Assembly (NCBI GenBank): GCA_905478995.1
Contig: CAJQKT010000038.1
Location: forward strand, 5,935-69,934
Reading direction: 5' to 3'
DNA from: an uncultured Pseudomonadales bacterium
GTDB lineage: Bacteria > Pseudomonadota > Gammaproteobacteria > Pseudomonadales > UBA7434
Length of the DNA stretch: 64,000 nucleotides
Shown here: one piece after another, positions 17,467-42,781 of the stretch
How positions within the stretch are numbered: the stretch's first letter is position 1
How the letters are laid out: each line of letters opens with the position of its first letter
Notes under the pieces: model-generated
The model's input: only the letters and a program-made list of their open reading frames with translations
Databases searched by the model: none
Told to the model about the DNA's origin: nothing
Translations under genes and position numbers: made by a program

Positions 17467-18825
17467 CTAAATTAATTCAAGCGCCTCGCTCAACCAATTC
17501 ACTCCATGAACCTGCATACCTTCAATAGCCTGCTTAGGCTTGTTTGCCATCGGTACGATCGCGCGGTCGAACCCATGCTTTGCAGCTTCAAAAATTCGTT
17601 CCTGCCCACTCGTCACTGGGCGTATTTCGCCAGACAGACCCACCTCACCAAAAACCACCAAACTTTTAGGAAAGCTTTGATCGCGAAAGCTAGACACTAC
17701 AGCCAGCAACAATGCTAAATCAGCACCAGTTTCTAACACTTTAACTCCACCCACAGCATTAACAAAAACGTCGGACGAACCCACTGCCAAGCCTCCATGC
17801 CTATGCAAAACAGCTAGCAACATAGCCAGCCTATTTTGATCGAGGCCAACGGCCACGCGGCGAGGATTTCCCGCCTGCGTATCATCGACCAGCGCCTGAA
17901 TCTCAACCAGCAGCGGCCGAGTGCCCTCCCACAAAACAACTACCACACTACCGGGCGAGTCAGCTTGGGCTCGGCTGAGAAAAATAGCCGACGGGTTTTT
18001 AACTTCACGCATGCCTTCTTCGGTCATCGCAAAAACACCCAATTCGTTAGCCGCGCCAAAGCGATTTTTTTGGCCTCGCAACATGCGGTAGCGGCTATCC
18101 GCCGAACCCTCTAACAGCACCGAACAGTCAATCATATGCTCTAAAACTTTTGGCCCCGCAAGACTGCCATCCTTTGTGACATGGCCGACTAAAAATACAA
18201 TAGTATTGGATTGCTTGGCAAAGCGCGTAATGGCGGCCGCGCACTCTCTTACTTGCGAAACGCTACCGGGCGCTGCGGGCAGCTCATCGCTATGCATAAC
18301 TTGAATGGAGTCAATGACCATGACCCGAGGCTTTTGCAAGCTAGCCGTAGCTAAAATAGTCTCAATGCTGGTTTCAGTCATCAACTGTAAATTGTCAGCA
18401 ACCAAGCCTAGGCGACGCGCACGCAGAGCGACCTGCTGCAAAGACTCCTCTCCGGTGACATACAAGGCTGCATAATTGCGCGCCAATATGCTCATGACTT
18501 GTAACAACAAAGTACTTTTACCCGCGCCTGGACTACCGCCGATTAAAATAGCAGAGCCGGCGACGAGACCACCGCCCAACACACGATCAAATTCTCCCAA
18601 GCCACTGGTGATACGTGGCACTTCAGCTAAATCGATATTATTCAACGTTTGAATCTGCGCAGCAGCTCCCGCAAAACCTACGGCGCGATGCTGCCCTGCC
18701 GAAGCACTCCCTAAATTCACTTGCGAGAGCGTATTCCAGGCACCGCAGTCGTCACATTGGCCTTGCCACTTGCGGTAATCGGAGCCGCAGTCTCCGCATA
18801 CAAATGCAGTTTTTGTTTTTGCCAT
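17467..18825 (-). CDS. radA: DNA repair protein RadA/Sms
   Basis: It has an N-terminal zinc finger (C.DCG....KW.G.C..C..WNT), Walker A GSPGAGKST, the KNRFG motif and a Lon-like C-terminal domain. Confidence 0.97.
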   Translation of the reverse strand: MAKTKTAFVCGDCGSDYRKWQGQCDDCGAWNTLSQVNLGSASAGQHRAVGFAGAAAQIQTLNNIDLAEVPRITSGLGEFDRVLGGGLVAGSAILIGGSPGAGKSTLLLQVMSILARNYAALYVTGEESLQQVALRARRLGLVADNLQLMTETSIETILATASLQKPRVMVIDSIQVMHSDELPAAPGSVSQVRECAAAITRFAKQSNTIVFLVGHVTKDGSLAGPKVLEHMIDCSVLLEGSADSRYRMLRGQKNRFGAANELGVFAMTEEGMREVKNPSAIFLSRAQADSPGSVVVVLWEGTRPLLVEIQALVDDTQAGNPRRVAVGLDQNRLAMLLAVLHRHGGLAVGSSDVFVNAVGGVKVLETGADLALLLAVVSSFRDQSFPKSLVVFGEVGLSGEIRPVTSGQERIFEAAKHGFDRAIVPMANKPKQAIEGMQVHGVNWLSEALELI

Positions 18826-19262
18826 TAACTACCTCTTAACAATATACATCCCAGGCTGGCCGGTCACTTCTGACAGTGTTTTATCGTGCACTTTCAAGCA
18901 CATAACGAAGCCAACCCGAATAGAAATTTAGCGATCAATATGGCTTTTGACCAGCCGCCCAATTTTGCACGCTATTGTACGCGGCAAAGCAACGGTTGTG
19001 GACGCAACCTGCCGCTAAACCTTTGCTCGCGCTGCGTATTAAAGCGAATTGTTTTTTCTGGCTTTGGTAGAGTTTCGCAGCTTCGTGCTTTAAACTAAGC
19101 CGCGATACGATGCCGTACTCACCGTGCAAGAACCCTTTATCTTATGCAAATATCCATTGATCTGGCTGCGCCGACAACAGCAGCGGTAATCCCTGTAAAA
19201 CCTGCCCAGAACCTACATTCCTGGATGCAATTATTAGCAAACAGCGATGGCCTGGCAAGATC

Positions 19263-20456
19263 ATGAGCCACTCGCTCATCCCTGAAAGACCCGTTCTGGT
19301 ATCGCCCTCATTAGCGGCGTCTATTGGTCTGGAAGAAGCCATTTTGCTTCAGCACCTAGAAGCTTGCTGCCAGTTCAGTAATGGCCATCCTAATAGCACT
19401 TCGGCAACAGCGAATGGCAACAGCCAATCGGCCTATGGGAAAAGTCATTTACCCCAGGGGTATCAATGGGCGCATCTTTCCCTGTCTGCACTTGCCGAGC
19501 AGCTGCCTTTTTGGACTCCCGCATCGGTGCGCCGTATTCTGCAAAGCCTTGTCGATTTAGGCATGCTCATTATCGATACACTACCATCAAGCGAAAGTCA
19601 TTCATTTGCCTTTGCCATCAATCAGCAATCAGCGGCAGAGCCTATAGCAGCGCCAAGGCGCTCAGCTCACCAACCCGGTTTGGGCGGACAAAAAATTGAT
19701 GCTCAGTGGCAACCTGATGCAGCCGTAATTACCCAGCTACAACAACAAGGCGTAGCGCCCTCCTTTATTTTGAGCGCTGTCGACGAATTCGTTTTGTACT
19801 GGCGCGAGCGCAATGAGATCTCACACAGCTGGTCGAGCAAATTTTTACAGCATGTAAACCGGCGCTGGCAACAAGATAAACAACATCAGCATGACCGCAC
19901 TGCGCGCCTAACACAACTATCTGCCAGCAACCCTCAAGGTATGCAGCCTAGCTGGCAACCTAGCATCGATGCAGTTGAAATATTATTGCGGATGGGCATC
20001 CATCAAAACTTTCTGGATGACGCCATAGCCGAGTTCGTGCTGTACTGGCAAGAGCGCGGCGATGCCCAAGCCACCTGGAACTCAAAGTTTGTCACGCATG
20101 TAAAAAGACAGTGGGCGCGCTACACGCACACGCTCAAACACGATACTGAGCCGGTCCCTATGTATGAAAACTGGCAACCGGATCATGAGGTATTTGATGT
20201 ATTAGCCATTGCCAATATTGAAGAACAGTTTGCTAAAGAACTTGTGCCAGAGTTCATGATGTACTGGCGTGACAAAAACGAATTACATCACTCATGGAAT
20301 ACTAAATTTCTACAGTATGTAAAACACCAATGGTCAAGAACCCATCAAGCTAAAGAGCACAATGCTAATGGAAAACATGGACAAACTGACGAAAAACGCC
20401 GCACGCGAGATCGCTCACTCCTCGAAGATCTCACCGACCGAAGCTGGGCAAACTAA
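19263..20456 (+). CDS. Replication-module protein: N-terminal wHTH-like region (lambda-O-like architecture) plus three tandem DnaT C-terminal (ssDNA-binding) domain repeats
   Basis: There are three repeats of about 55 aa (aa 149-203, 231-285, 304-358). Each reads WQP[DS]..... then EF[VM][LM]YW[RQ][ED][RK] then [ST]W[SN][ST]KF[LV].[HY]V[NK][RH][RQ]W. The remembered E. coli DnaT reads MYPDWQPDADF...[26 protein letters not shown]. Confidence 0.7.
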   Translation: MSHSLIPERPVLVSPSLAASIGLEEAILLQHLEACCQFSNGHPNSTSATANGNSQSAYGKSHLPQGYQWAHLSLSALAEQLPFWTPASVRRILQSLVDLGMLIIDTLPSSESHSFAFAINQQSAAEPIAAPRRSAHQPGLGGQKIDAQWQPDAAVITQLQQQGVAPSFILSAVDEFVLYWRERNEISHSWSSKFLQHVNRRWQQDKQHQHDRTARLTQLSASNPQGMQPSWQPSIDAVEILLRMGIHQNFLDDAIAEFVLYWQERGDAQATWNSKFVTHVKRQWARYTHTLKHDTEPVPMYENWQPDHEVFDVLAIANIEEQFAKELVPEFMMYWRDKNELHHSWNTKFLQYVKHQWSRTHQAKEHNANGKHGQTDEKRRTRDRSLLEDLTDRSWAN

Positions 20457-21045
20457 CACCCAGAAAAAAACCGACGCATTACAAGTTGATGCTATTAATC
20501 AGGTATTTTCGCTTTTTAGAATCAACTACCACAATCAGTTTTATGCGGCCTATTCTGATAGTGACACGCTCAACCAAGCCAAGCGATTATGGCTACAATC
20601 ACTCGCGCCCTTTGATGCACAAACCATCTTAAAGGCAGCTAAAACAGTCATTGAAGACTCAGAATATTTACCTACCCTACATCGGTTTTTAGGCTTTTGT
20701 GACCAATTTGCCTTCGCACTACCCACCGTGCGCGATGCTTTTTTGGAAGCCTGTACGGCGCGCGCGCCCTATGAAAATAACAATTGGTCGCACAACTTGG
20801 CTTATCACGCGGGCAAAGCGGCCGGATGGAGTTTTTTGCGCGGACAACCTGAGGCAAAAACCTTCAGCGTTTTTTCTGGACACTACGATCGCCTGGCCAG
20901 GCAGCTACGTGAGGGGCAAGCACTGGCACTGCCGCCCACTAGATCGGAGCAAGCGGCAGAAACCACACCGCCTTCGGAGCCGCTAAACCAACAAGAAAAA
21001 ATTAAAAGGCTAGCAAAACTGCGCGAGCAACTGGCATTAGATTAA
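20362..21045 (+). CDS. Lambda replication protein P-like protein (candidate helicase loader)
   Basis: It is collinear with remembered lambda P: INQVFSLF / INGVFSQL, KRLWLQSL / RRQWVLAF, YLPTLHRFLGFC / FLPSPGQFVAWC, LPTVRDAFLEAC / LPNVSELVDMVYEYC, and C-terminal PLNQQEKIKRLAKLREQLAL / PLNRAQALAKIAEIKAKFGL. It has no Walker A. All in-frame ATGs (20362, 20368, 20377) overlap the upstream gene by 80-95 nt. Confidence 0.65.
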   Translation: MLMENMDKLTKNAAREIAHSSKISPTEAGQTNTQKKTDALQVDAINQVFSLFRINYHNQFYAAYSDSDTLNQAKRLWLQSLAPFDAQTILKAAKTVIEDSEYLPTLHRFLGFCDQFAFALPTVRDAFLEACTARAPYENNNWSHNLAYHAGKAAGWSFLRGQPEAKTFSVFSGHYDRLARQLREGQALALPPTRSEQAAETTPPSEPLNQQEKIKRLAKLREQLALD

Positions 21046-21063: not shown

Positions 21064-21636
21064 TTGGCCAGCGTGCATAAAAGCTCAATGCTAATTGGCC
21101 AAAAAAATCGCTCAGGCATTTTTACTCTAATCCCAAAATTCGGGACGCAAAAATTCGGAGGCTCTATCAGCGAACTAGACAAACTCTGGGATCACCCCGA
21201 CCCTCATATTATGCGCACCCAAGTAGCGCCCGAAGATATTGACGGGCTCAACCACACCAACAACGCCGTTTATGTAAACTGGTGCCAGCAGCTGGCGTGG
21301 GCGCACTCCAACGCCTTAGGACTAGACCTAATCAGCTACCAGTCGCTTGATCGAGCGATGGCAATCATTCACAGCGAGTTCCACTACCTGCAAGCCTCCG
21401 TCGAGGGCGATAAAATCGTCGCCGCCACTTGGATTACCAGCTGGGACCGAAAACTCACCATGCATCGCGAATTCCAGGTGATTCGCCCTAGTGACGGCAT
21501 AACTTTGCTACGAGCAGCCATGCGCTTTGCCTGTATAGAATTGAGCAGCGGTAAGCCCAGAAGAATGCCGCGCGAGTTTATCGAGGGATACGAACCGGCC
21601 GTTCTGAGCAAAGACCCGACCCATCATTCAAGATAA
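21064..21636 (+). CDS. Hotdog-fold acyl-CoA thioesterase (4HBT family). The start is uncertain: 21064 is TTG, and ATGs lie at 21088 and 21211.
   Basis: It has V.PEDIDGLNH.NNAVYVNW, typical of 4HBT/YbgC-like thioesterases, and the core is about 140 aa. Confidence 0.65.
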   Translation: MASVHKSSMLIGQKNRSGIFTLIPKFGTQKFGGSISELDKLWDHPDPHIMRTQVAPEDIDGLNHTNNAVYVNWCQQLAWAHSNALGLDLISYQSLDRAMAIIHSEFHYLQASVEGDKIVAATWITSWDRKLTMHREFQVIRPSDGITLLRAAMRFACIELSSGKPRRMPREFIEGYEPAVLSKDPTHHSR

Positions 21637-21804: not shown

Positions 21805-23496
21805 TTATTCGCGTGGCGACGAGCCGTGATAATCGCCATGGGCAAGGTTTTCAAAGCGAGTATATTGACCAATAAACGCAAGTCTCGATGTGCCAATTGG
21901 GCCATTACGCTGCTTACCAATAATAATCTCAGCAGTGCCCTTATCGTCGGATTCTTCGTTGTAAACTTCATCACGGTAAATAAACATAATGAGATCTGCG
22001 TCTTGCTCGATGGCACCTGACTCTCGCAGATCGGACATGACCGGCCGTTTATTTGGGCGCTGCTCTAAGCTTCGATTAAGCTGTGAGAGTGCCACCATCG
22101 GGCAATCAAATTCTTTGGCAATACTTTTAAGGTTGCGCGAAATCTCACTGATTTCCTGTGTTCGCCCCTCGTTGCTACCTGCCACTTGCATCAACTGCAG
22201 GTAATCGATCATGATCATACCGATACTGCCGTGCTCGCGCGCTACCCGGCGAGCACGAGATCGCACTTCAGTGGGGGTCAGGGCAGGCGTGTCATCGATT
22301 AGCAAGGGGCGATTTTTAAGTTGCTGCATAGCCGCACTAAGCTTGGTCCAATCTTCATCTTCGAGCTGACCGTTACGCACGCGCGTTTGATCAATTCTGC
22401 CAACCGAGGAAAGCAGGCGCATCATCAATGAACCCGCAGGCATTTCCATACTGAACACCAGCACGGGTTTTTCCGTATGCAATACCGCATTCTCAACCAA
22501 ATTCATCGCAAACGAGGTTTTACCCATTGATGGTCGACCCGCCACAATCACTAAGTCTGCCGGCTGCAAGCCCGAGGTTTTAGCATCAAGGTCAGCGAAT
22601 CCAGTAGAGAGGCCGGTAATTGCGCCTTTTTTGTTAAACAACTCATCAATTTTATTGAGGGCGTCTTTCATTAAGGCATTAACAGCGATAGGCCCGCCTT
22701 GCTTAGGACTGTTTTCACCCACCTGCATAATCAATCGCTCAGCGCTATCAAGCACCTCAGTCGCATCGCGACCCTCAGGGCTAAACGCGGTGTTTTGAAT
22801 ATGCGTGGCTGTAGTAATAATACGGCGCAAGGTTGCACGATCGTGAACGATACTCGCATAAGAGCGAATATTAGCCGCCGAAGGCGTATTTTTCACTAAC
22901 TCAACGAGGTAGCTCAGGCCGCCTGCAGCGTCGAGTAAATCTCTCTTTTCAAGCGCCCCTGACAACGTCACAACATCAAGCGGCTCGGCTGCATCGGACA
23001 AACGCGCCAACTCAGCAAAAATATGCGTATGTTTTTGAAAATAGAAATCCTGCGACGTCACCATATCGGCTATAGCATCCCAAGCCTCATGCGATAACAT
23101 CAGACCACCGAGCAATGATCGCTCGGCCTGCGCAGAATGCGGTAAAGTTTTTAAACTGCCAACATCATTCGCATAACTTGGCGATGTAGCTGGAGATTGC
23201 GCAGCGGCATCAAGGCCCGAAGGCAAGGCGGCGCTAAGGTCATCCTGCCCACCATAGCCTGCCTCATCATAGAAAGCTCCAGCATCGGGAGCCTCAGTAT
23301 CAAAATCAAGCATTGAACTGCTAAGCATGTTCGAGTCGCTGAATTCAGCGGTGCCAGCGTCGCCTTCGCTAGACATACCGAATATCGAATCATCGCGCAC
23401 AGCATCAGATGCATTGCCAGCACCAGACTGGGTACTTGCAGACAGTTCTTTGGAGTTATCGGTATCAGACACGTTTTTAGCAGCCGTTGTGTACAA
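21805..23496 (-). CDS. dnaB: Replicative DNA helicase DnaB with an acidic low-complexity N-terminal extension. The start is uncertain: 23496 is TTG, and the first ATG is codon 41.
   Basis: It has LKTLPHSAQAERSLLGGLML (canonical LKVPPHSIEAEQSVLGGLML), Walker A GRPSMGKTSFA, IMIDYLQLM and GKQRNGP.G. Confidence 0.95.
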   Translation of the reverse strand: MYTTAAKNVSDTDNSKELSASTQSGAGNASDAVRDDSIFGMSSEGDAGTAEFSDSNMLSSSMLDFDTEAPDAGAFYDEAGYGGQDDLSAALPSGLDAAAQSPATSPSYANDVGSLKTLPHSAQAERSLLGGLMLSHEAWDAIADMVTSQDFYFQKHTHIFAELARLSDAAEPLDVVTLSGALEKRDLLDAAGGLSYLVELVKNTPSAANIRSYASIVHDRATLRRIITTATHIQNTAFSPEGRDATEVLDSAERLIMQVGENSPKQGGPIAVNALMKDALNKIDELFNKKGAITGLSTGFADLDAKTSGLQPADLVIVAGRPSMGKTSFAMNLVENAVLHTEKPVLVFSMEMPAGSLMMRLLSSVGRIDQTRVRNGQLEDEDWTKLSAAMQQLKNRPLLIDDTPALTPTEVRSRARRVAREHGSIGMIMIDYLQLMQVAGSNEGRTQEISEISRNLKSIAKEFDCPMVALSQLNRSLEQRPNKRPVMSDLRESGAIEQDADLIMFIYRDEVYNEESDDKGTAEIIIGKQRNGPIGTSRLAFIGQYTRFENLAHGDYHGSSPRE

Positions 23497-24302: not shown

Positions 24303-25178
24303 CTAATCCCGATTCTTTTGCCCAACACGCGAGCGAAAATCTAATGCGCTATCGGCAACGGCCACCGCGGCTAATAGTGCCACCAGCGGCCGAAACACAA
24401 ACAATGCCATGTAAAACAACACTAACCAGCGCACAGGCAGCTTACTTTTTGCCACCAGCCCATGAACTAAAGCCATACCGGCCACCAACAAAGGCACAAT
24501 AAACATCCATGACCAAGTACTGTAAGAGTCTTGCGAAGCGACGACAATAAACCCGCCCACCAGAACCAAACCGTGCAACCGATCTAATTTCAATGCATGG
24601 AACTCTTGTTGAAAACCACCGGGGTTATACAACAGAGCCTGCCACCACCGCCCAACCAACAAGCTAAAAATCGTCGTTAAGGCCTGCAATATGGCTAACA
24701 TGCCCATAATCTGCATACCACTCGGGGCATTGATACGATCAAGTACTTCTCGCTCAGTATCACTCGCCGAACTCATCACGCGAGCCTTAAAACCTTGTAA
24801 AACCTGTTCAAAAATCAAACGGATCGTTTCAACGTATTCCGGTGCCAGCAACACAATTAACATGCACCACGTGCCAATAACAAATGGTGTAGCTAACAGA
24901 GCCACCGACCAGCTTTGTGAAACCCGCAAGGCCGCCGCTAAAATAACCGCACAAACTAATGTGGTAAGCGGCCCAATATCTCCCGCAAACATCCAAAACG
25001 CGGCTGGAACAAGCGCTGCCAAAAACACAATGGCTGCACGATTGACCCCGTGCCTCAGCACCATTAATGCAACCGCCGCGGCACCGATCCAAGCCAAAAA
25101 CAAACTTGCCGTAGCCAATGCAGCCACTAAAGCACCTTGCAATGGGCTGCGCATAATAAAGTCGGCGAGTGATTTCAT
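24303..25178 (-). CDS. Polytopic inner-membrane protein (DUF2232-like) inserted between rpsR and rplI
   Basis: It has 7-8 hydrophobic segments and no catalytic motif that I recognise. A membrane protein occupies the same position in Pseudomonas-type rpsF-rpsR-x-rplI-dnaB clusters, as far as I remember. Confidence 0.6.
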   Translation of the reverse strand: MKSLADFIMRSPLQGALVAALATASLFLAWIGAAAVALMVLRHGVNRAAIVFLAALVPAAFWMFAGDIGPLTTLVCAVILAAALRVSQSWSVALLATPFVIGTWCMLIVLLAPEYVETIRLIFEQVLQGFKARVMSSASDTEREVLDRINAPSGMQIMGMLAILQALTTIFSLLVGRWWQALLYNPGGFQQEFHALKLDRLHGLVLVGGFIVVASQDSYSTWSWMFIVPLLVAGMALVHGLVAKSKLPVRWLVLFYMALFVFRPLVALLAAVAVADSALDFRSRVGQKNRD

Positions 25179-25314
25179 AGCTTGCGTCCGAATAAATCGA
25201 CCTGCTTTTCTAGCCTCGAAATAGCAAACCCCGAATCGGCCACATTAGCTGTGAACACCATTTTATAAACAATATCAAATATTTGCGGGGCAAATTCAGC
25301 CCTGCAAACATACT

Positions 25315-25542
25315 CTATTCGTGGCTATCGGTGTAAGGAACCAAAGCCAAAAATCGAGCGCGCTTAATTGCAGTCGCTAACTGGCGCTGATACTTCGCTT
25401 TAGTACCGGTGATTCGGCTAGGCACAATTTTACCTGTTTCCGAAATGTACTCTTTAAGGATATCGAGGTCTTTGTAATCAATGTAGTCGATGCCCTCTGC
25501 GGTGAATTTACAGAACTTACGTCGACGAAAAAAACGAGCCAT
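25315..25542 (-). CDS. rpsR: 30S ribosomal protein S18
   Basis: It has [12 protein letters not shown].........IDYKD...L...[30 protein letters not shown]. Confidence 0.97.
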
Positions 25543-25652
25543 AATGCTCTCCTACTTACTGGGTATTGCTGTTAACAAACAGCTTAATTTGCTGATTTTT
25601 CAAAAAATTCGCACGTCACATAGCCAAACGGAGCTTAATAAACCCCGAGCCG

Positions 25653-26075
25653 CTAGCTTTTAGCTTCAGCGGCGGCTGGCGCGGCAGCAGCTGGAGCCGC
25701 GTTAGCGTTTGAGTCTGAACGGGCGTCGTAGCGTGCTTTGCGGTCGCGTTGTTCTTGCTCGGACTTCATAATCGGCGATTCAGCAGTTTCAGCAGCATTG
25801 GTGCGTATCACAAGATTACGTAACACTGCATCGTTGTACCGGAAGTTGGTAGTCAATTCGTCGACGGCTTCTTGAGTAGCCTCAACGTTCATTAACACAT
25901 AGTGCGCTTTATGGAGTTTATTGATGGGATACGCGAGCTGGCGTCGACCCCAGTCTTCTAGACGATGCATTTTGCCGCCGTCTTTGGTGATTGCCGCGGT
26001 ATAGCGCTCAATCATGCTGGGTACTTGCTCGCTCTGGTCAGGGTGGACCATGAACACAATTTCGTAGTGTCGCAT
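25653..26075 (-). CDS. rpsF: 30S ribosomal protein S6
   Basis: It has [18 protein letters not shown]......[13 protein letters not shown]...AHYVL.N and an acidic/Ala-rich tail. Confidence 0.97.
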
Positions 26076-30986: not shown

Positions 30987-33900
30987 ATGTATAAGAAGTT
31001 TTTTAAACGTCCCCTTCACCTTTTTGCCACGGCACCAGCATTGATTATGCTGAGCACCCTTTCTAGTTGCGGTGGCGGTGGCGGTGGTAGCGATCCCGTT
31101 ATTGCAGCAGTAGGCGAACCTCAAGCTACGACTAACCGTTGCAAAAATGTCCCCGGACAACCTATTCCCACTCAAGAAGACGGATTTCCCGGCCCAGACC
31201 TAAACATTGCCGGCGAATGGGTTTTGCAGCCACAGTTAAGCGATGAATTTGACGGAACTTCGGTCGACACCAACAAGTGGTCATTCCAAACTGGCCTTGG
31301 CGGTGGTTGGGGTAATTCTGAATTACAAAACTATCGGGCAGAAAATGCCAAGGTGGCTAACGGGCAACTTATCATTACCGGCACTAAAAGCGGCAGCAAT
31401 TATTTTTCAGCGCGCATGCGCAGCATCGAAAAAATGTCGTTCACTTATGGTCGCGTCGAAGCACAAATTCAAGCGCCGGCAGGATTAGGCCTCTGGCCAG
31501 CATTTTGGATGTTGCCTGATGATTCGCCGTACATTGCCGAAGATGCCGAAGGTAATGGCTGGGGCGGCACCGGCGAAATCGATATTTTTGAAGCGTTCAA
31601 CCCTGGCGCGGGCGATAATGTTTTCGCCTCCGACGAGAGTGGCGGCACCATCTGGCATGGCATGCTATTCCCCAGCCAGCAGTCAAGAGGAGCGGTCGTC
31701 AAGAATGATGCCACCCAGCCGCACACTTATGCCATTGAGTGGGAAGCCAATCAAATCCGCTGGTATTTAGATGGCGAGCACTATCAAACCATTGGTGCCG
31801 ATCACTACTACAGCTACTACTGGGGCGGTCAAGATACGGGCTATGTTAGAGCAGCTCCTGGCGCACCTTACGACACAAATTTCCATATTTTATTGAACCT
31901 CGCTATTGGCGGCAACGGTCCGACCTATTCACCGGACAACAGCAATGTATGGCCAGCTGAAATGAAAGTCGACTTCGTGCGCGTATTCAAGTGCATGGTG
32001 AATGGCGAAGAAAGCCCAACGGGCGCTGGCTGTGCAGGTACGCTGGATGCCGGGGGTTTAATGACTGGCTCCAATACAATTAACCCCGATGTTGAAATGC
32101 CCGCAGCCAAAGATGCTTTTGTAGCCTCACAAATGCTGTTTGATAGCGGTGTTAACGATCTCCTTTTTTGTGATGGGCTCAACCCCTTAGCGCATGAAAT
32201 AAACCTAACCGTCATTGACCCTGACGGTGTTGTTTCAGTTAATGCAGCAGCGACTGCCAGCGATAACTCTGACGGTCACGGCAACGTGTTGGATATTGTT
32301 GTTACCGAAACCTCAGAACCTGCCGGCTTTGCTTTTGAGCCTACGCAGCCCGATCAGATCCCTAACTGTGATGACGACGAACTGACAGACAATCCTGATT
32401 GCCTACCCGTCAAGTCACTGACACTTGTGGGCATGGGTGACGACGGCCAGGGTAACGCTGAACTGAAAATGGACATTTATATCGATAGCGCCAACACGGA
32501 GCTTGGGACTGCTGAGAATCCAGCCACTTTCAGTATTTTTATGGAAGATACAGCAGCACTGCTGGCCGAGTCAGCTCCTTCGGATGATCGATGCGCTGCA
32601 ACCGGTATTAGCTCAAAAGAAATCGCGTTTGACGAGCTTCCGCATGACCAATGGACCACCTTGAGCGTGCAGCTCAATGAAATTGCTCCAGGTCTTAAAG
32701 CCGATGAGGTCACCAAGCTTTTTGGCCTAATGGTAGAGGGCAAGGCTCACATTCAACTGGATAACGTAGAGATCATTTGTGCCAACCCATCAGAAGATGG
32801 TTGTGGTATAGCACCACCGGCGGCCAATGATTTTGGCGATGCTTTCGTTGTTTTTGGCCCCTACGAGGCAACCGCTAAATATGAGGCAGGCGATGGCGTA
32901 CCGCCTATCTGGACCAATGGAATCCGCGCTTGGGATACAACCATTCAAACGGATTACATTGACGGCGAGACCGACAACCATGTGCGCTGGAGAGAGGTAT
33001 TCGCAGACGGTTTAGATGCCGACGGCGCACCTCGAGCCAAAGTGCTAGAGGTTGAGTTTGCCGATGACGGCAAAAACACTGATGGCCTTTTCTATATTCA
33101 GTCGAATGTCACCAACGATTTGAGGAGCTACATTGCTGGTAAACTAGTCTTTGATATGCGCGTGACAGAAGGCGATACCACCGACTTCACTTGGAAAATA
33201 GACTGCCGCTATCCGTGTGGCACGGGTGATCAAACTCTGCTGGGTGTAGAGCCCGATGGTGAATGGCAAACCTTTGAAATTTTAGTTTCCGAGGCGATTC
33301 TCAAAGGGCTAGACATCGGCAAGGTCAACACGCCATTAGTCTTATTCCCATCATTTGGCACACCTGGCCAACAAGGCACAACGATACAGCTGGATAACAT
33401 TAAGTGGACGATAGACGGTGGCGAACCACCACCACCGCCACCACCGCTTGGTAGTCAGCCACCAACCTTTGCGCCTGCAGGCACTGAAATAGTCTACGAA
33501 AGCACACCTGCTGCTCCGTGGACCTTCTTTAACTGCTGTGGCGGCGGCGCCATACAAGAAGATGTAGTCGCTAATGACCCTGACTACCCAGGCTATGGCG
33601 ATGTGTTGCAGCTTAGCTACACTACCAACCAAGGTACAGTCACTGGCTTGAACACACTACCTTTGAATGTTGGCATTGACATCAGCAGCTATGCAGGCGG
33701 TTCGCTGGAGTTTGATGCCAAGATAGTGTCAAACCCCGACTCCTGTGCGCCATGGTTAATGAAAGTTGAAGGCCCAGGCGTAGAGCTTCCATTGTCAGCA
33801 GGCCTAGGCGGCGTGAACAAGCCAGAAGGGCAATGGGCCCATTATTCGTTCAAACTTGAAGGGCCGCTCGCCGGCCTAAATAAAACCCGCTGGGACAAGC

Positions 33901-33992
33901 TCATGATCTTCCCACGCTGGCAGTCGGCTCAGGGCGGGGTAATTCAGATCGATAATATCCATATCGCTCCGGCTCCACCCCCAGCTCCTTAG
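30987..33992 (+). CDS. Surface lipoprotein GH16 beta-1,3-glucanase (laminarinase-like) with three C-terminal carbohydrate-binding-like modules
   Basis: It has a lipobox LSSC followed by GGGGGGS, WGN.ELQ.Y, GLWPAFWMLP and the catalytic GEIDIFE (ExDxxE). It has about 650 aa of C-terminal beta-sandwich-like sequence in three segments, ending HIQLDNVEI, TIQLDNIKW and VIQIDNIHI. There is a PPPPPPP linker and a Pro-rich C-terminus. Confidence 0.8.
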   Translation: MYKKFFKRPLHLFATAPALIMLSTLSSCGGGGGGSDPVIAAVGEPQATTNRCKNVPGQPIPTQEDGFPGPDLNIAGEWVLQPQLSDEFDGTSVDTNKWSFQTGLGGGWGNSELQNYRAENAKVANGQLIITGTKSGSNYFSARMRSIEKMSFTYGRVEAQIQAPAGLGLWPAFWMLPDDSPYIAEDAEGNGWGGTGEIDIFEAFNPGAGDNVFASDESGGTIWHGMLFPSQQSRGAVVKNDATQPHTYAIEWEANQIRWYLDGEHYQTIGADHYYSYYWGGQDTGYVRAAPGAPYDTNFHILLNLAIGGNGPTYSPDNSNVWPAEMKVDFVRVFKCMVNGEESPTGAGCAGTLDAGGLMTGSNTINPDVEMPAAKDAFVASQMLFDSGVNDLLFCDGLNPLAHEINLTVIDPDGVVSVNAAATASDNSDGHGNVLDIVVTETSEPAGFAFEPTQPDQIPNCDDDELTDNPDCLPVKSLTLVGMGDDGQGNAELKMDIYIDSANTELGTAENPATFSIFMEDTAALLAESAPSDDRCAATGISSKEIAFDELPHDQWTTLSVQLNEIAPGLKADEVTKLFGLMVEGKAHIQLDNVEIICANPSEDGCGIAPPAANDFGDAFVVFGPYEATAKYEAGDGVPPIWTNGIRAWDTTIQTDYIDGETDNHVRWREVFADGLDADGAPRAKVLEVEFADDGKNTDGLFYIQSNVTNDLRSYIAGKLVFDMRVTEGDTTDFTWKIDCRYPCGTGDQTLLGVEPDGEWQTFEILVSEAILKGLDIGKVNTPLVLFPSFGTPGQQGTTIQLDNIKWTIDGGEPPPPPPPLGSQPPTFAPAGTEIVYESTPAAPWTFFNCCGGGAIQEDVVANDPDYPGYGDVLQLSYTTNQGTVTGLNTLPLNVGIDISSYAGGSLEFDAKIVSNPDSCAPWLMKVEGPGVELPLSAGLGGVNKPEGQWAHYSFKLEGPLAGLNKTRWDKLMIFPRWQSAQGGVIQIDNIHIAPAPPPAP

Positions 33993-34035
33993 TAAGCGGA
34001 GATAAACCATAAGGTTACTGCCTAGTAACCTACAA

Positions 34036-34066
34036 CAAAAAAGCCAAGCATTAGCTTGGCTTTTTT
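34036..34066. terminator. Bidirectional rho-independent terminator between the GH16 lipoprotein gene and the TBDR operon
   Basis: AAAAAA-GCCAAGC-atta-GCTTGGC-TTTTTT. Confidence 0.75.
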
Positions 34067-34298
34067 GTTGTTATAGAAAACACCCTTAGCACTATTTGCA
34101 GGCTAAGCGTGATAATAAAGCGCAAATGAAGCCCTAGTAGTAGTAGTCGTAGTCGTCAATAAACCTGCCCAGCAGAGGACAAAATGAAAGCAAACATCGG
34201 TCTACGGCGCTAAAACCAATAAGCGCAATGACCCACCGTAAGCAACCGCGCCTCGCCGACGCCTCTTGCCGAGCTCTCTTGCTCAGCCTTATGACACT

Positions 34299-35786
34299 TT
34301 AGGACGCGCCACGACAATAATGATTAATGAAGTCGCTGTGGCTAGGCAACTGACCCACCTTCGCTTTTACATTGCGTTTAATTTCGCTTAAAAAACCTTC
34401 TAACTCGCGATCACTCATCATATTAACAATCGGGTGGTATTGTTCCGGCGTAATGCCCTGCCCCAACATCACTTGCACCCAGGAATTCTCAGAAAATAAC
34501 TCGTCCGGCATTTGAAATACTCGCCCGGTCTGCTTAAATAAATCTATCCGATGCTCTAGTGAGTCTGGTAATGACATACTGCTAACATATCGCCAAAAGT
34601 CGGTGTCTCTGCGATTAGTCACATGATAATGAAGAATAATAAAGTCACGAATATGCTCTGTCTCTTGCTTCATTTGACGGTTAAACTCAGCAACATCGGG
34701 ATCGCGAATGCCATCGTAGGGGAACATTTGCATAAGCCGTATAACCGCACGCTGAATCAAATGAATACTGGTTGACTCTAACGGCTCAATAAACCCGCCC
34801 GACAAACCTATAGCCACACAGTTTTTATTCCAATGCAGAGCGCGCTGGCCTGTAGTGAACTTAATGGGGTTAGGCTCGGTGCGAACGGGGCCTTCGATAT
34901 TACCCAGTAACGTTTGCAATGCGTTGTCATCCGACTGATATTGGCTGCTATAGACCAAACCGTTACCCACTCTTGACTGCAACGGAATGCGCCACTGCCA
35001 GCCGCTGTCTCGCGCAATGGAGCGCGTATAAGGCACTGGTGCGCGCACCGACTCTGTTTGAATGGCAATTGCGCTATCGCAAGGCAACCAATGTGTCCAA
35101 TCTTCGTAGCCTGTTTTTAATGTCTGTTCCATCAGTAACGCCCGGAAGCCACTGCAATCAATGAATAAGTCGCCGCTCACCACCTCACCTGACTCAAGCT
35201 TTACGCTCTCGATAAAACCTGAAGTGGCGTTCGTAGCCACATGATTGATTTTTCCCTCAATACGCTTACAACCGCCCTTCTCGGCTAGGCCTCGCAAAAA
35301 CTTAGCGTACAACCCCGAGTCAATATGGTATGCATAATTAAGCCCCTCACCTTTCGTGATCGCAAACTTATTAAGCTTGGCCGCAATAAGCTCAGGGCAG
35401 TAATCGCCATAATCGGTGCTTAGTCCGCGCTCCTTCCCCTTAAGCCAAAAGTGTTGAAAACCTGCGGCCCAACAATCTTTACCTGTCCAGCCAAATGAAT
35501 GAATGTAATCCTCACTAACATTACGCCAGTTTTCAAACGATATGCCCAACTTAAAAGTCGCGTTTACGGCCGTCAAAAAATCCTGCTCATTGATTTTTAG
35601 CAGTTGATGCAAAGTAAATAGCGTTGGAATAGTCGCTTCACCCACCCCCACCGTACCTATTTGTTCCGATTCGACTAAGCAAAGTTCAAAGTTTTTTCCT
35701 AGCAACGTTGCCAGCGACGCAGCGGTTATCCAGCCTGCCGTGCCGCCTCCAACAACCACTACTTTTTTCACTTTATTCATCATCAA
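34299..35786 (-). CDS. Flavin-dependent tryptophan-halogenase-family protein (canonical WxWxIP)
   Basis: It has N-terminal VVVGGGTAGW (GxGxxG), FKLGISFENW, GWQWRIPL (WxWxIP) and GFIEPLESTSIHL. Confidence 0.8.
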   Translation of the reverse strand: MMMNKVKKVVVVGGGTAGWITAASLATLLGKNFELCLVESEQIGTVGVGEATIPTLFTLHQLLKINEQDFLTAVNATFKLGISFENWRNVSEDYIHSFGWTGKDCWAAGFQHFWLKGKERGLSTDYGDYCPELIAAKLNKFAITKGEGLNYAYHIDSGLYAKFLRGLAEKGGCKRIEGKINHVATNATSGFIESVKLESGEVVSGDLFIDCSGFRALLMEQTLKTGYEDWTHWLPCDSAIAIQTESVRAPVPYTRSIARDSGWQWRIPLQSRVGNGLVYSSQYQSDDNALQTLLGNIEGPVRTEPNPIKFTTGQRALHWNKNCVAIGLSGGFIEPLESTSIHLIQRAVIRLMQMFPYDGIRDPDVAEFNRQMKQETEHIRDFIILHYHVTNRRDTDFWRYVSSMSLPDSLEHRIDLFKQTGRVFQMPDELFSENSWVQVMLGQGITPEQYHPIVNMMSDRELEGFLSEIKRNVKAKVGQLPSHSDFINHYCRGAS

Positions 35787-35807
35787 ACCTTTTAATTGGC
35801 AGGCCGC

Positions 35808-36842
35808 TTAATCTTTTAAATTATTGCTTAACTGCTGGCGAATAGACTGAGCCAGCTTTTCATTCAACGGACCCAGCACGCCACGCCGCGCCTTAGGTAT
35901 ATGCGCAACACTTTCTTCGTCACTATCAAACACATAAAAATTGAGCATGTTCTGCCAAATGACTCGCTGCTCTTCGGGCAACGATTTAAACGCCAACAAA
36001 GCATGCAGCAATGCATCAGACGGAGCACCGGTATACTCTGGCGTAGAACGCCACCAATAGTTGACCAAAATATTAAATGCATCGAAAGACTCAACATGGT
36101 GCCACCACATGCTGGGTAGATATAGTGCATCGCCAGGCTCAAGCTCGGCCACTTGAGCCGCTTTTATAGCGTCGCGAAACTTAGGGTATTTTTCATAATC
36201 AGGATGATCAAAATCAACCAAACTAATCGCCTGCCCTGCTGGCGTAAAATCGATTGGACCCACATATAAATTGCCCAACTGCTCAGGTGGAAATAACGTA
36301 AAACGCCGATGACCGGCAACGCAGCAAGCAATATTACTCGGGAAATCATAGTGTGCCGCAATTTTACTTTGATTACCCAGCCAAATACTGGCCAGCGGAT
36401 CATACGCCTCAAGCGCAAGATCATTATGCTGCCTAAATGCTGGAAACCAATGATCAATATTGGTTGAGCCAACATAACAGGTGGGGACTTTAGCATCACC
36501 TAGAGCATGAGACTCGCTGCCAACATATTTAAGCAGCTCCGCTAAAATCTCATCGAGCTTACCCCGCACCGCTTTAAAATTAAAGCCGCTCATGTCTTCG
36601 TTATAAAACAAACGGCCTTCGCTCTCGGGTGCTGCTAAGAATGCAACGACCGGTTTGCTATCATAAAACTGCAATAGGTACTCAATCGCTTTTTCTTTGG
36701 AATGCTGCCCGGCGCTCACCACCGGCCAATCTTTAACAAGGCCTTTTAATAAAATAGGCTGCGTCGACTGCATCACTTCGATAGGCAGATTAGATGAGTC
36801 ACATCCCTCTAAGACTTTAACGCTTTTTTCAATGTTCAACAT
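35808..36842 (-). CDS. JmjC/cupin-8-like Fe(II)/2-oxoglutarate oxygenase-fold protein ('Pass1-related')
   Basis: It has the HxD...H facial triad candidates AAHYDFP and WWHHVESF and a length of about 340 aa. Its start overlaps the SapC stop (ATGTTGA). Confidence 0.65.
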   Translation of the reverse strand: MLNIEKSVKVLEGCDSSNLPIEVMQSTQPILLKGLVKDWPVVSAGQHSKEKAIEYLLQFYDSKPVVAFLAAPESEGRLFYNEDMSGFNFKAVRGKLDEILAELLKYVGSESHALGDAKVPTCYVGSTNIDHWFPAFRQHNDLALEAYDPLASIWLGNQSKIAAHYDFPSNIACCVAGHRRFTLFPPEQLGNLYVGPIDFTPAGQAISLVDFDHPDYEKYPKFRDAIKAAQVAELEPGDALYLPSMWWHHVESFDAFNILVNYWWRSTPEYTGAPSDALLHALLAFKSLPEEQRVIWQNMLNFYVFDSDEESVAHIPKARRGVLGPLNEKLAQSIRQQLSNNLKD

Positions 36843-37540
36843 ACAAGGAGCTTATTTTTTTTGTCGACCAAATTGGCTAAACGTGAAAGCGATGCTACTG
36901 CCATAAAAAGCGGCTGCAAAAAATTCTGGTTATGCAGTTTGCCTAAAGCGTCTGCACTGAGCTCCCGTAATTTATCTTCATTAATCGTATAAAACCCTGT
37001 CAATTCATGCTCAACACCATCGGCCAACATAAGCTTCAAAGCTAACGACTCAAGCAATTCCAACTCCAGCAATTGCTCGATGAATACTTCGGTATCTTGA
37101 TAGGCGCCATGCAGCTCATTAAGCATTGCTGTGACATTTTTTAAAAAATCGGTACCTTCACCCATCTCATCAAATAATGCTTCGCCCTCTACTTTATTAA
37201 CGCGCGGGCTATCCATATCTATTGTGACAATTGGCTTTTCACCTTGAAAACCCACCATAAACGGTTGACGCAAGATGCTAGCGGGGATGTACGAGGCATC
37301 CCAACCTTCCTCATTCAAAAAAAGATTTTCTTTAGCCTTTAAACCGAGTAACGCCACCGGAAACAATTTACCAGTATTGCTATCTTTTTGAAAAAGAATG
37401 GGATAATCCGATTGGACATTTCTAAACTCAAATGGAAATGCAAGCGTTGCTATAACACAATCGCCATAGAGCTCCGAACGCTGGGTAACAATTTTTATAT
37501 CTTTGTGATCAACTGGGTTGAGTACAGCATGATTTTGCAT
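36836..37540 (-). CDS. SapC family protein
   Basis: The family resemblance is remembered: about 235 aa, N-terminal ..L.P..H.D.KI.....Y...., PI.F........P.ALLG. The conserved position is between TBDR-linked halogenase and cupin genes. The ATG at 37540 sits 7 nt after AGGTGG. Confidence 0.6.
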   Translation of the reverse strand: MQNHAVLNPVDHKDIKIVTQRSELYGDCVIATLAFPFEFRNVQSDYPILFQKDSNTGKLFPVALLGLKAKENLFLNEEGWDASYIPASILRQPFMVGFQGEKPIVTIDMDSPRVNKVEGEALFDEMGEGTDFLKNVTAMLNELHGAYQDTEVFIEQLLELELLESLALKLMLADGVEHELTGFYTINEDKLRELSADALGKLHNQNFLQPLFMAVASLSRLANLVDKKNKLLVC

Positions 37541-37604
37541 TGGCATTCCACCTATCAGTTCGCTTATGGTGACAGCAATGCCGCACAACCACACTTCACA
37601 TTAA

Positions 37605-39173
37605 TTAAATTTTTGGCAAGCCATATTGCATTATTTTATTGATCAGCTCACGATTGCTGGGCAAAGAGCCTAACAGCTGCTCGATTTTACGCCTGTTGTT
37701 TTGAAACTCGCCCATCGCTTTCGCAGCGGCATCTTTGGGCTGGCTTCGGTTAGCAGCCAGATGAGTTTTGCCCCCCATACCATAATAAACATATTGAAAG
37801 CTGGCCGGAGGAAACATGTCATCAATGAAGCGTCCATCCTGATGCCACGGACATTGGTGGCGCCAAAGGGTCACTAGCTCCTGCAGCCGCTCAGGAATGG
37901 TACCTTGATCACAATGATCGCGCCAATAGTCGGAGTCGTTACGCTGTGTCAAAATATAATGCAATTTTAAAAACTCAACAATACGCTGCCATTGAGTTAA
38001 GAATCTTTCGTTAAAGCGCCTGGCTAGTATATCCATTGCCTCGCGGTTAACAGGGAGTTGGTCGCTCAACATGGTGGCAGATAACTCAACCAACACAAGC
38101 GCCGAGGCTTCCAACGGTTCAATGAAACCAGCCGCAATACCGATGGCCACACAGTTTTTGTGCCAAAGTTTTTGTCGATACCCGGGGTTAATATTGAGCT
38201 CACGAACGTCTAGCGCACTGGCTTGCTGTACACCCAAGCCAATGGCAATGTATTCGCGCAGCTGCTGCTCAGCTTTTTCACGGGTAGTGTGCGCACTAGA
38301 GTATACGTAGCCCACGCCACGACGATGAGGTAAGCCAATATCCCAAATCCAGCCGGCCGTTTGAGCAGTGGCCAATGTTGCTGAGGCTACTGGATCGTCG
38401 GCTCGAGCGTAAGGCACCTGTGCGGCCAGCGCTGTATCGTTAAATAAAATATCTTGCTGGCTGACTAACGGAATTTGATAGTGCTGGCCTAGTAATAGTG
38501 AAGCAAAGCCCGTGCAATCGATAAATAAGTCGCCTTGAATAGGCTCACCCGAATGCAGGCTAAGTGAAGCGATATCGCCATTGGGGTGTGAATTTATTTC
38601 ACTAATGTTGGCCAGCACATGAGTGACACCCAGTTTTTCTACGCAATGCTTTTGCAAAAAACTTGAAAACTTAGCCGAATCAAGATGGTAACCATAGTTT
38701 GCCACTGGGGCATATTCAGGCGTAGCAATTTGTTTAGGCGCCAGACCATGCTCACACAAGCTACTTTGGGCGCTTACCGCATCGGCAAAGCTAACCTGCT
38801 CGCTAAATGCCTGCCAAGCGGCCGCCAAATTAACATCATCGTAGCCCTGAGGCAGTGAGAAAGGGTGATAGTAGGTCTCTGATTTGCCATGCGTCCATCC
38901 GACAAACTTCGAACCCTGCTTAAAACTGGCAGAACACTCACGAATAAAGTCGGTTTCGGAAACACCAATGCGCTTCAAGGTCGCGCGCATTGAAGGCCAA
39001 GTACCCTCTCCCACGCCAATGGGCGCAATATCAGGCGACTCAATCAATGTAATATGAAAATCAGCTGAGGCTACTGCAGCGCGATCAGCGGCTAAAATGG
39101 CGGCAGACAGCCATCCCGCCGTGCCACCACCCGCAATGACAACCTGCTTAACGTTTGGATTCATTTTTGACAT
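37605..39173 (-). CDS. Flavin-dependent tryptophan-halogenase-family protein (divergent WxWxIG)
   Basis: It has VVIAGGGTAGW, FKQGSKFVGW, GWIWDIGL (Pro of WxWxIP replaced by Gly) and GFIEPLEASALVL. Confidence 0.8.
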   Translation of the reverse strand: MSKMNPNVKQVVIAGGGTAGWLSAAILAADRAAVASADFHITLIESPDIAPIGVGEGTWPSMRATLKRIGVSETDFIRECSASFKQGSKFVGWTHGKSETYYHPFSLPQGYDDVNLAAAWQAFSEQVSFADAVSAQSSLCEHGLAPKQIATPEYAPVANYGYHLDSAKFSSFLQKHCVEKLGVTHVLANISEINSHPNGDIASLSLHSGEPIQGDLFIDCTGFASLLLGQHYQIPLVSQQDILFNDTALAAQVPYARADDPVASATLATAQTAGWIWDIGLPHRRGVGYVYSSAHTTREKAEQQLREYIAIGLGVQQASALDVRELNINPGYRQKLWHKNCVAIGIAAGFIEPLEASALVLVELSATMLSDQLPVNREAMDILARRFNERFLTQWQRIVEFLKLHYILTQRNDSDYWRDHCDQGTIPERLQELVTLWRHQCPWHQDGRFIDDMFPPASFQYVYYGMGGKTHLAANRSQPKDAAAKAMGEFQNNRRKIEQLLGSLPSNRELINKIMQYGLPKI

Positions 39174-39224
39174 ATAAAAAAAAAGCCTTTTCTAATGAAA
39201 AGGCTTTTTGCAACCTTTCACTAA

Positions 39225-42374: not shown

Positions 42375-42711
42375 AATGGACAAAACCTTATCGTTATCAA
42401 TTGGAAGCAGCAGCCGAACTATGCACTGCAAGGCCGCTTCTTATATGTGTTATTCGACTAACTTTAACCCGTAACTTTATCATGTTAGAGCCGTAGAAAA
42501 CCACGAGGATGGGGGGCGCTTATCTCACAATCGAGTCGGTTCATCAGAAACAATGCTGGCTATTATTTGCACCTGCTAGATTGAACAAAACACAAGCAGG
42601 GCAACCACCACAAAAAGCCTATACTTTGCGGCTAACTGCGCAAGTAAGCAAGGTGCTAGTGCTGGCTTGTGGGGAGATTATTTGGTAAGGAGAGTTTTGT
42701 TCGATTCGCAA

Positions 42712-42750
42712 CCAAAAGCGGCGATAAATTTTATCGCCGCTTTTGGTTTT
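42712..42750 (-). terminator. Rho-independent (bidirectional-looking) terminator separating the GH16/TSP3 pair from the TBDR operon
   Basis: CCAAAAGCGGCGATA-aatt-TATCGCCGCTTTTGG, followed by T-runs on both strands. It lies 32 nt past the GH16 stop. Confidence 0.75.
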
Positions 42751-42781
42751 GATCACTTAAATTTCAATTGCTTTCAAGTCG

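Follow-up and report, generated by a model that had tools for sequence, protein, structure and literature searches.

A resident, phage-derived dopC-dopE gene pair as a candidate DnaB-loading module in a marine Pseudomonadales lineage

How do bacteria that possess neither DciA nor DnaC/DnaI, one or the other of which was thought to be required, place their replicative helicase? DopE, a lambda-P-like protein, is the proposed third solution, and the question arises at a locus of an uncultured Pseudomonadales bacterium (GenBank assembly GCA_905478995.1, contig CAJQKT010000038.1). Within a 64-kb stretch of this contig (hereafter the window; statements on residency cover its annotated parts), two genes on the same strand lie between radA on one side and thioesterase, dnaB, rplI, rpsR and rpsF genes on the other (open reading frame (ORF) listing and Pfam). 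The original prediction, made from the sequence alone, took the two for a helicase-loading or replication-restart module of phage origin, a DnaT-like gene followed by a lambda-P-like gene, and suspected membership of the DopC/DopE family. The neighbours that it named, radA, a thioesterase, dnaB and rplI, are indeed those found from the ORF listing and the Pfam families of called genes; the start that it gave, 19144, falls in the intergenic region, and dopC begins at 19263. DnaB is the presumed client of DopE. The genes in question are as follows.

19263..20456, plus strand: dopC coding sequence, 397 amino acids (aa) plus stop codon (ORF listing; start MSHSLIPERP kept in homologues; three PF17948 domains)
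20368..21045, plus strand: dopE coding sequence, 225 aa plus stop codon (PF06992, phrog_109, hhalign, Foldseek; the mechanical ORF start is 20362)
17467..18825, minus strand: radA, divergent upstream neighbour (Pfam families of the called gene)
21805..23496, minus strand: dnaB, replicative helicase, convergent with dopE (PF00772 and PF03796)

Brézellec et al. (2017) sought genes common to all Cellvibrionales and to those Oceanospirillales that have neither dciA nor dnaC/dnaI, and found one, the resident lambda-P-like dopE, the single gene tracking dciA loss in the clade (PMC5509034). Its invariable upstream neighbour dopC was described as having a helix-turn-helix (HTH) N-terminus, a DnaT C-terminal motif replacing the C-terminal domain of lambda O, and no iterons; Cellvibrio japonicus CJA_3124 serves as the dopE family reference (PMC5509034), alongside Saccharophagus degradans for the resident P-like genes of Cellvibrionales. 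Over 99% of its length, DopE of the window shares 46% identity with a C. japonicus ‘replication protein P’ encoded on a 4.58-Mb chromosome. Since the domain make-up also fits the 2017 description, comparison at the sequence level identifies the window pair as a dopC-dopE orthologue from a lineage absent from the 2017 sample, and the suspected family membership is borne out. The finding is correct and already published as a proposal; it is not new. What the 2017 text does not contain is a triplication of the DnaT domain that is fixed and ancient, the dopC/dopE overlap, an invariant DopC tail, and phage proteins that combine DnaT domains with this tail.

The loader-like member of the pair is a lambda P relative by several routes. 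DopE matches PF06992 (Phage_lambda_P) with 32.1 bits against a cut-off of 26, over residues 44-188 and model positions 2-159 of 162, and phrog_109, ‘P-like helicase loader’, with E 3.7e-16. The predicted collinearity with lambda P, C-terminal helix included, is recovered by profile comparison from residue 38 to the C-terminus with the last helix aligned (hhalign E 6e-6, 18% identity). An AlphaFold2 (AF2) model built with 20 homologues is confident, with a mean predicted local distance difference test (pLDDT) score of 86, and its sole significant matches in the PDB are the DnaB-bound lambda P chains of 9oa1 (Foldseek E 6e-6 to 4e-4, probability 1.00), the full-length chain Z aligning over 241 columns. 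In the model, a helix at residues 3-20 and a disordered stretch precede two helical domains (about 30-118 and 123-183), after which come a flexible linker of lower confidence and a helix at 210-223. This order of elements equals the lambda P layout of N-terminal helix, two helical domains, linker and C-terminal helix (PMC12661323), from which paper we also take the role of the lambda P lasso. The last of these elements is mapped as follows.

20989..21030, plus strand: DopE C-terminal helix, residues 210-223, carried on a flexible linker (AF2; aligns with the lambda P C-terminus ...PLNRAQALAKIAEIKAKFGL)

Searched against PDB sequences by phmmer, DopE returns no match, and lambda P is reached by structure and profile comparison only. 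Neither DopE nor DopC has a Walker A motif or an IstB/AAA match in Pfam, as expected from the statement that the second ORF is not DnaC/DnaI-like. Identity to phage P-like proteins is 23-25%, and no DopE relative was found among the 2.9 million viral contigs of IMG/VR.

DopC comprises a predicted winged HTH domain and three DnaT-type domains, arranged as follows.

19263..19628, plus strand: winged HTH domain, aa 1 to ~122 (AF2 model, PHROG, tblastn, invariant P82-F83-W84)
19707..19871, plus strand: DnaT-type three-helix domain, repeat 1, aa 149-203 (Pfam; model helices 153-161, 166-183, 190-221)
19953..20117, plus strand: DnaT-type domain, repeat 2, aa 231-285 (Pfam, phmmer; the conserved linker ...HDTEPxP... 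follows)
20172..20336, plus strand: DnaT-type domain, repeat 3, aa 304-358 (Pfam, homologue alignment)

Three stretches of DopC match PF17948, ‘DnaT DNA-binding domain’ (Pfam; E 1.4e-71, 236.6 bits against a cut-off of 25), which, together with the PF06992 match of DopE above its cut-off, makes both proposed similarities significant in profile searches. The repeats stand exactly where the original prediction had placed them, and each translates to WQP...EF..YW......W..KF...V...W. Identity to repeat 1 is 36% for repeat 2 and 37% for repeat 3. Repeat 2 gives the best Pfam match (residues 225-290, model positions 1-67 of 69) and is aligned by phmmer with the solved C-terminal domain of E. coli DnaT (4ou6, 4ou7, 2ru8, 9zbt). 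In that alignment, the equivalents of E. coli DnaT Y127/W128, W140 and K143 are retained in all three repeats. Mutation of Y127, W128 or K143 in E. coli DnaT reduces or abolishes binding to single-stranded DNA (ssDNA) (PMC4132743), and by analogy we infer that the DopC repeats would bind ssDNA.

The AF2 model of DopC (pLDDT 80) shows a winged HTH, then three three-helix bundles and a short terminal helix. The N-terminal domain is built of helices 15-39, 74-80 and 86-99 and strands 69-73, 102-104 and 114-119, interrupted by a disordered insert (aa 40-66, nucleotides (nt) 19380-19460) that varies by lineage and has pLDDT below 50 at residues 42-62. A winged-helix-like N-terminus with an insert had been read from the sequence, and the model agrees with it over residues 15-119. 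In PHROG, the N-terminus hits families of replication initiators (E 2e-7 to 1e-3), and tblastn of DopC against 50,697 phage genomes matches only the N-terminal 100-150 residues, never the DnaT repeats. The genes so matched occupy the lambda O position, and one of them, from a Klebsiella phage, bears Phg_2220_C, a domain assigned by the 2017 paper to the C-terminus of lambda O (PMC5509034). DopC has no Phg_2220_C match in Pfam; the DnaT repeats stand there instead. The whole DopC model has no PDB match at E 0.001 or better (Foldseek), its sub-threshold matches being generic winged-helix proteins and plasmid RepA_N initiators with probability ~0.85, and hmmscan reports a weak HTH_IclR match (E 0.029). 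The identical DopC sequence occurs in 347 blocks of the public assembly collection. We rejected DopC as an orthologue of E. coli-type DnaT, for it scores 26.8 bits against a cut-off of 201 with NCBIfam NF002770 and only the C-terminal domain region aligns; the ‘Primosomal protein I’ of phage mEp460 was likewise dismissed as a DnaT relative, having no Pfam DnaT domain.

Is the pair resident in the chromosome, and how widely? A scan of one genome per species gave at least 427 confirmed DopE matches, the best 80 of which are the related loci surveyed throughout. These 80 come from Porticoccaceae, Halieaceae, Cellvibrionaceae or unclassified relatives (Cellvibrionales or uncultured gammaproteobacterial metagenome-assembled genomes (MAGs)), the nearest among the matches listed being the uncultured ‘Pseudomonadales’ MAG AK_MB162 with 96% DopE identity. 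About 2,000 DopC homologues were found, and the named ones belong to Cellvibrionales (Simiduia, Gilvimarinus, Porticoccus, Cellvibrio, Exilibacterium). The original prediction had proposed that conservation of the pair and of its radA-dnaB context be examined. dopC lies directly upstream of dopE in 77 of the 80 loci, and in the other three (L048, L051 and L073) the contig ends just upstream of dopE. radA precedes dopC in 56 of 80 and also in a divergent branch, dnaB follows dopE within a few kilobases in 32 (mostly Halieaceae and this lineage), and the order dnaB-rplI-(membrane protein)-rpsR-rpsF is found downstream in ~30, again mainly in Halieaceae and this lineage. Relative to the 96%-identical relative, the ratio of non-synonymous to synonymous substitution rates (dN/dS) is 0.081 for dopC and 0.045 for dopE.

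The annotated genes of the window are all housekeeping genes by Pfam: the riboflavin operon, nusB, thiL, glyA, nrdR, ettA, radA, dnaB and ribosomal proteins, and further a laminarin-utilisation cluster, queCE, tol-pal, ruvCAB, aspS and proS. No integrase, capsid, tail or lysis gene, and no dciA, dnaC/dnaI or priA/B/C, is present among them. Guanine-cytosine (GC) content and skew show no break at the locus, and its base composition equals that of the flanks. Collectively, the pair is resident, phage-derived and strongly constrained, and the view that it is not a prophage gains support from its housekeeping surroundings, synteny and dN/dS of 0.045-0.081. Iterons, inverted repeats, DnaA boxes, LexA boxes, promoters, terminators and Rfam families were sought around the locus and nothing above chance was found; dopC contains no significant direct repeats beyond those encoding the three protein repeats. 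With no iterons and no DnaA-box cluster, the locus is not an origin, in agreement with the 2017 analysis, in which GC skew puts the origin at gidA-dnaA, not at dopC, in 13 genomes (PMC5509034).

The triplication of the DnaT domain, singled out in the original prediction as a feature worth examining, proves to be a family trait. Nearly all dopC ORFs in the 80 related loci encode three DnaT domains; of the four with fewer, two are truncated by the contig end (L048, L073) and two are probably frameshifted (L080, L085), and a few homologues (P0047, P0049) have four. In a library-wide search summarised by 150 representatives, three repeats dominate at 340-450 aa, some proteins have four, and many shorter ones have two. 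Repeats at equal position are 54-62% identical across species, against 35-40% among repeats inside one protein. Because same-position repeats are more alike across species than repeats within one protein, the sequences indicate that the triplication is older than the radiation of these families and that its three positions are conserved separately.

The 3' end of dopC is used twice, as follows.

20368..20456, plus strand: dual-coding overlap of 89 nt, encoding the DopC tail and, in the +1 frame, the DopE N-terminal helix (ATG position, diversity by phase)

In ~70 of 77 loci a +1-frame ATG precedes the end of the dopC stop codon by 89 or 92 nt, and in ~20 of the 77 it is the sole available start; a divergent metagenome-derived branch has the overlap too, with the ATG at -86 or -92. 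Nucleotide diversity in the overlap is flat over the codon phases (0.71, 0.84, 0.89), whereas single-coding sequence has the usual wobble peak, with 0.60/0.43/1.32 in dopE and 0.83/0.64/1.36 in dopC. Given the conserved ATG position and this dual-coding signature, dopE most probably starts at 20368 and encodes 225 aa, rather than starting at 20362 and encoding 227 aa as first predicted. Such a start, 89 nt inside dopC, probably couples the translation of the two genes. Among the 80 loci the only clear non-overlapping one is L039 (4816-6661, Cellvibrionales MAG JBGTQK01), in which the dopE ATG follows the dopC stop codon by 15 nt. In four metagenome assemblies of the same organism (L001-L004, 11194-11826), dopE was left uncalled by gene callers, probably owing to the 89-nt overlap, and automated annotation may under-report dopE. 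One apparent motif in this region, ‘S-x-T-x-A-G-Q’ in DopE, was rejected as a functional motif; it is the other-frame reading of the LTDRSWA tail of DopC and is gone in the non-overlapping L039.

The tail of DopC is mapped as follows.

20403..20453, plus strand: DopC tail TRDRSLLEDLTDRSWAN, aa 381-397, a short helix followed by an L-x-D-R-S-W-A end (alignment)

The tail reads ...TRDRSLxEDLTDRSWA, and in 27 homologues its residues L390, D392, R393, S394, W395 and A396 are invariant; many other DopC-like proteins have the tail too, with variants such as ...FIEKHTDKSWREGL in distant members. In L039, DopC retains the tail and DopE retains its N-terminal helix pattern, despite the lack of an overlap. 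The same ending is found on phage proteins, in that three Mu-like contigs encode a protein of 160-180 aa with two DnaT domains and an ...L(T/S/V)DRSWA tail at the following positions.

L089, 8052-8552: Mu-like DnaT-plus-tail gene
L091, 10001-10489: Mu-like DnaT-plus-tail gene
L092, 10001-10543: Mu-like DnaT-plus-tail gene

These contigs also encode an rve transposase, a MuB-like AAA ATPase, DUF3164, GemA and Mor, with no P-like gene near, which suggests that the phages bring a DnaT-like adaptor of their own. PHROG ‘replication initiation protein’ families align with the Mu-like protein too, over their C-terminal parts. An IMG/VR contig (L088, 2862-3659) encodes a 265-aa viral protein with a different N-terminus, two DnaT domains, the LTDRSWA tail and the same HDTxP linker as between DopC repeats 2 and 3; this N-terminus resembles replication-initiator and primosomal families of PHROG in their C-terminal parts, and the gene sits between a DNA methyltransferase gene and a cytosine methyltransferase gene. 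In view of such phage proteins, the DnaT-type C-terminus of DopC need not have arisen after capture, and an initiator of this kind may already have existed in phages. Owing to its invariance, its retention in L039 and its presence on stand-alone Mu-like phage proteins, the tail is likeliest to be the protein-contact peptide of DopC.

What would such a pair do? In the reading that we prefer, with a probability of about 0.7, it is a resident operon of marine Cellvibrionales in which DopE loads DnaB in the manner of lambda P, and DopC holds ssDNA and recruits DopE. The ancestor of the clade would have captured the replication module of a lambdoid phage and kept it as a cellular function. Several DopE copies would bind the DnaB hexamer, with their C-terminal lasso helices at the docking-helix–linker-helix (DH-LH) interfaces of DnaB, opening the ring into a spiral able to admit ssDNA; as DopE has no Walker motif, this loading would need no ATP. 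DopC would be the adaptor that brings DopE-DnaB to DNA, which might be a DnaA-opened origin, abandoned forks, or both. In E. coli, the C-terminal domains of DnaT form a left-handed filament round lagging-strand ssDNA with two bases per interface, one of them docking on PriA, and oligomerisation depends on a separate N-terminal domain (PMC13377028). By analogy, with three DnaT-type domains fused in one chain, a single DopC molecule could offer a pre-formed, short DnaT filament on ssDNA, at ~2 nt per domain interface. The protein contact would be made by the LTDRSWA tail, possibly together with the N-terminal winged-helix domain. In lambda, older genetics has the C-terminal part of O contacting the N-terminal part of P. 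The N-terminal lassos of P have been speculated to engage O (PMC12661323), and the DopC tail, were it to contact the DopE N-terminus, would by analogy follow this lambda O-P precedent. As to the site of action, the Mu-like proteins and radA lean to restart and the 2017 phylogenomics to initiation; the two would be compatible, as they are for E. coli DnaC. Of the module first predicted, the domains, residency and family now stand, as do the fold, the overlap and the tail; helicase loading, ssDNA binding, the partner of the tail and the site of action in the cell are the parts that we infer.

Several points count against this reading. The absence of other DnaB loaders rests on the 2017 survey of the order, not on this organism, and the tail could have as its partner DopE, DnaB, PriA or SSB-interacting proteins. 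E. coli DnaT K133, F135 and R146, likewise required for ssDNA binding (PMC4132743), have no clear DopC counterparts in the alignment. The inter-domain geometry of the DopC model is unreliable (predicted template modelling score, pTM, 0.33), and the idea of a ready-made filament stays conjectural. Comparison of the DopC profile with lambda O itself detects no similarity (hhalign); of the lambda O likeness originally predicted, the resemblance to other phage initiators of the O position stands (PHROG, tblastn) and that to lambda O itself does not, so that, at the level of sequence, ‘O-like’ holds for the protein class of DopC and is not demonstrated for lambda O proper. Pfam HTH_36 (PF13730), found by HHpred in the 2017 paper (PMC5509034), was not recovered on DopC by hmmscan at E up to 1. 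Finally, we found no experimental work on DopC/DopE in open-access papers and bioRxiv up to 2026; the papers of 2024-2026 in these sources that mention DopE merely cite the 2017 proposal, and the remark in the original prediction that such pairs lack experimental characterisation still applies.

A more elaborate form of the preferred reading, which seems to us rather unlikely, would make DopC a covalently trimerised DnaT analogue and the single helicase recruiter at origin and forks, its tail docking on the N-terminal lasso or domain of DopE. The two interacting segments would then share 89 nt in two frames, locking their co-evolution, and the DnaT-plus-tail proteins of Mu-like phages would draw host DopE-DnaB onto transposition forks. 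A rival account, that the pair is a restart module only, a DnaT/DnaC-like arm acting after PriA at abandoned forks, with loading at oriC left to another factor or to DnaA alone, seems to us unlikely. E. coli DnaT, which alone among relatives of the DopC repeats has been characterised, acts in restart that depends on PriA. The order of a DnaT-like gene and a loader mirrors E. coli dnaT-dnaC, as had been pointed out together with the different loader family (lambda-P Pfam match, no Walker A). The conserved neighbour radA is a recombination-repair gene, and it is Mu-like transposable phages that carry a stand-alone protein of two DnaT domains and a tail, Mu replication in E. coli being dependent on the PriA-DnaT-DnaBC restart route. 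However, E. coli priB sits between rpsF and rpsR, and this position is empty here, a misfit with an E. coli-type PriA-PriB-DnaT route. E. coli also uses one loader for initiation and restart, so that the roles are not exclusive, and dopE is the single gene tracking dciA loss in a clade with no dnaC/dnaI (PMC5509034).

That the pair might be what is left of a prophage, decaying or selfish, or a decoy that keeps DnaB from incoming phages, with no part in chromosome replication, is very improbable. Both proteins are clearly of phage ancestry, and the 2017 authors suggested protection against phages as a possible advantage of dopCE capture (PMC5509034), yet the same architecture recurs in the genomes of hundreds of species, dN/dS is 0.05-0.08, the pair sits in a stable neighbourhood of housekeeping genes with none of phage type near, its base composition is that of the flanks, and the search of viral contigs described above returned no DopE relative. 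We give hardly any weight to the notion that DopC is an initiator firing a second origin in or near its own gene, as lambda O does at ori-lambda; its winged-helix N-terminus is akin to phage and plasmid initiators, but the locus has no iterons, its sole significant direct repeats encode the three protein repeats, neither DnaA-box enrichment nor a local shift in cumulative GC skew is seen, and the 2017 GC skew puts the origin of 13 genomes at gidA-dnaA (PMC5509034). Scarcely more credible is the use of the overlap for programmed +1/-2 ribosomal frameshifting into a DopC-DopE fusion. A conserved +1-frame overlap of 86-92 nt would allow it, and a few database proteins (P0378, P0398) do run from the DopC frame into the DopE frame, with tails ending ...TSPTPPGQTE; these, however, are most likely assembly frameshifts, the ATG is conserved at a fixed distance, with a conserved DopE N-terminus after it, the overlap consensus shows no evident conserved slippery motif, and the L039 genes are fully separate, each with its own terminus.

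The surroundings of the pair offer some further observations. The radA-dopC intergenic region (window 18826-19262, 437 bp) contains no match to a known RNA family, a LexA box, a DnaA box or a convincing plus-strand dopC promoter. A 4HBT_2 thioesterase gene (21064-21636) lies between dopE and dnaB in this lineage only, in 1 of 80 related loci. At 24303-26075 the order is rpsF-rpsR-(291-aa membrane protein)-rplI; the rpsF-rpsR interval is without priB, and the membrane-protein insertion is kept at its position in ~30 related loci. DnaB carries an acidic, low-complexity N-terminal extension (23146-23496, minus strand, the first ~117 codons of dnaB from a putative start codon), with 14 D/E against 1 K/R in the 78 residues preceding the conserved N-domain motif. 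The extension is common to the 96%-identical MAG (L006); as a hallmark of the dopCE clade it was rejected, since Halieaceae DnaB has the usual lead of ~27 residues. Farther downstream, 30987-45459 is a polysaccharide-utilisation cluster with two GH16 glucanases, one bearing F5/8 type C modules, a TonB-dependent receptor, two tryptophan-halogenase-like proteins, SapC and a cupin-8 protein, and is probably the laminarin or beta-glucan locus of a marine heterotroph.

The locus adds no new kind of system; it confirms that an abundant marine lineage has fixed the pair and keeps it under strong constraint, and it is new only in the overlap, the tail, the triplication, which is ancient and fixed, and the phage counterparts. 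Should DopE be shown to load DnaB, no free-living bacterial clade among those examined would be without a dedicated loader, and replacement of the ancestral loader by one from a phage would have a second independent case, the first being DnaC. The pair offers experimental handles in the dopE start codon, the invariant DopC peptide and three non-equivalent DnaT domains with mutable Y-W pairs, to which the uncoupled L039 variant, as a control for dual coding, and the phage DnaT-plus-tail proteins may be added.

Compared with lambda O/P, dopC-dopE has the same order of an initiator-like gene and a loader, and DopE shares the fold and layout of lambda P, the C-terminal lasso helix included, at 18% identity. 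The DopC N-terminus appears to belong to the winged-helix initiator class of the lambdoid O position, with lambda O itself undetected. The rest of DopC differs from lambda O in having DnaT domains in place of Phg_2220_C and iterons. The overlap is 89 nt in dopC/dopE and 4 nt in lambda O/P, and dopCE is chromosomal and resident, while lambda O/P is phage-borne. E. coli DnaT-DnaC presents the same order of a DnaT-type, ssDNA-binding protein and a loader, and DopC keeps the key aromatic and lysine residues of the DnaT domain. However, DopC has three such domains fused, where E. coli DnaT has one and oligomerises via a separate N-terminal domain; the N-terminus and C-terminal tail of DopC differ from those of DnaT; and DopE is of the lambda P family without an ATPase motif, whereas DnaC is an AAA+ loader. 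DciA, which DopE is proposed to replace in this clade (PMC5509034), has the same proposed job and, like DopE, is not an ATPase; the two are unrelated in fold and sequence, although lambda P and some DciA proteins both bear terminal helical ‘lasso’ elements (PMC12661323). Closest of all are the DopC/DopE pairs of Cellvibrionales and some Oceanospirillales, which have the same gene order, domain make-up, non-prophage context and clade as the window pair and show no essential difference from it.

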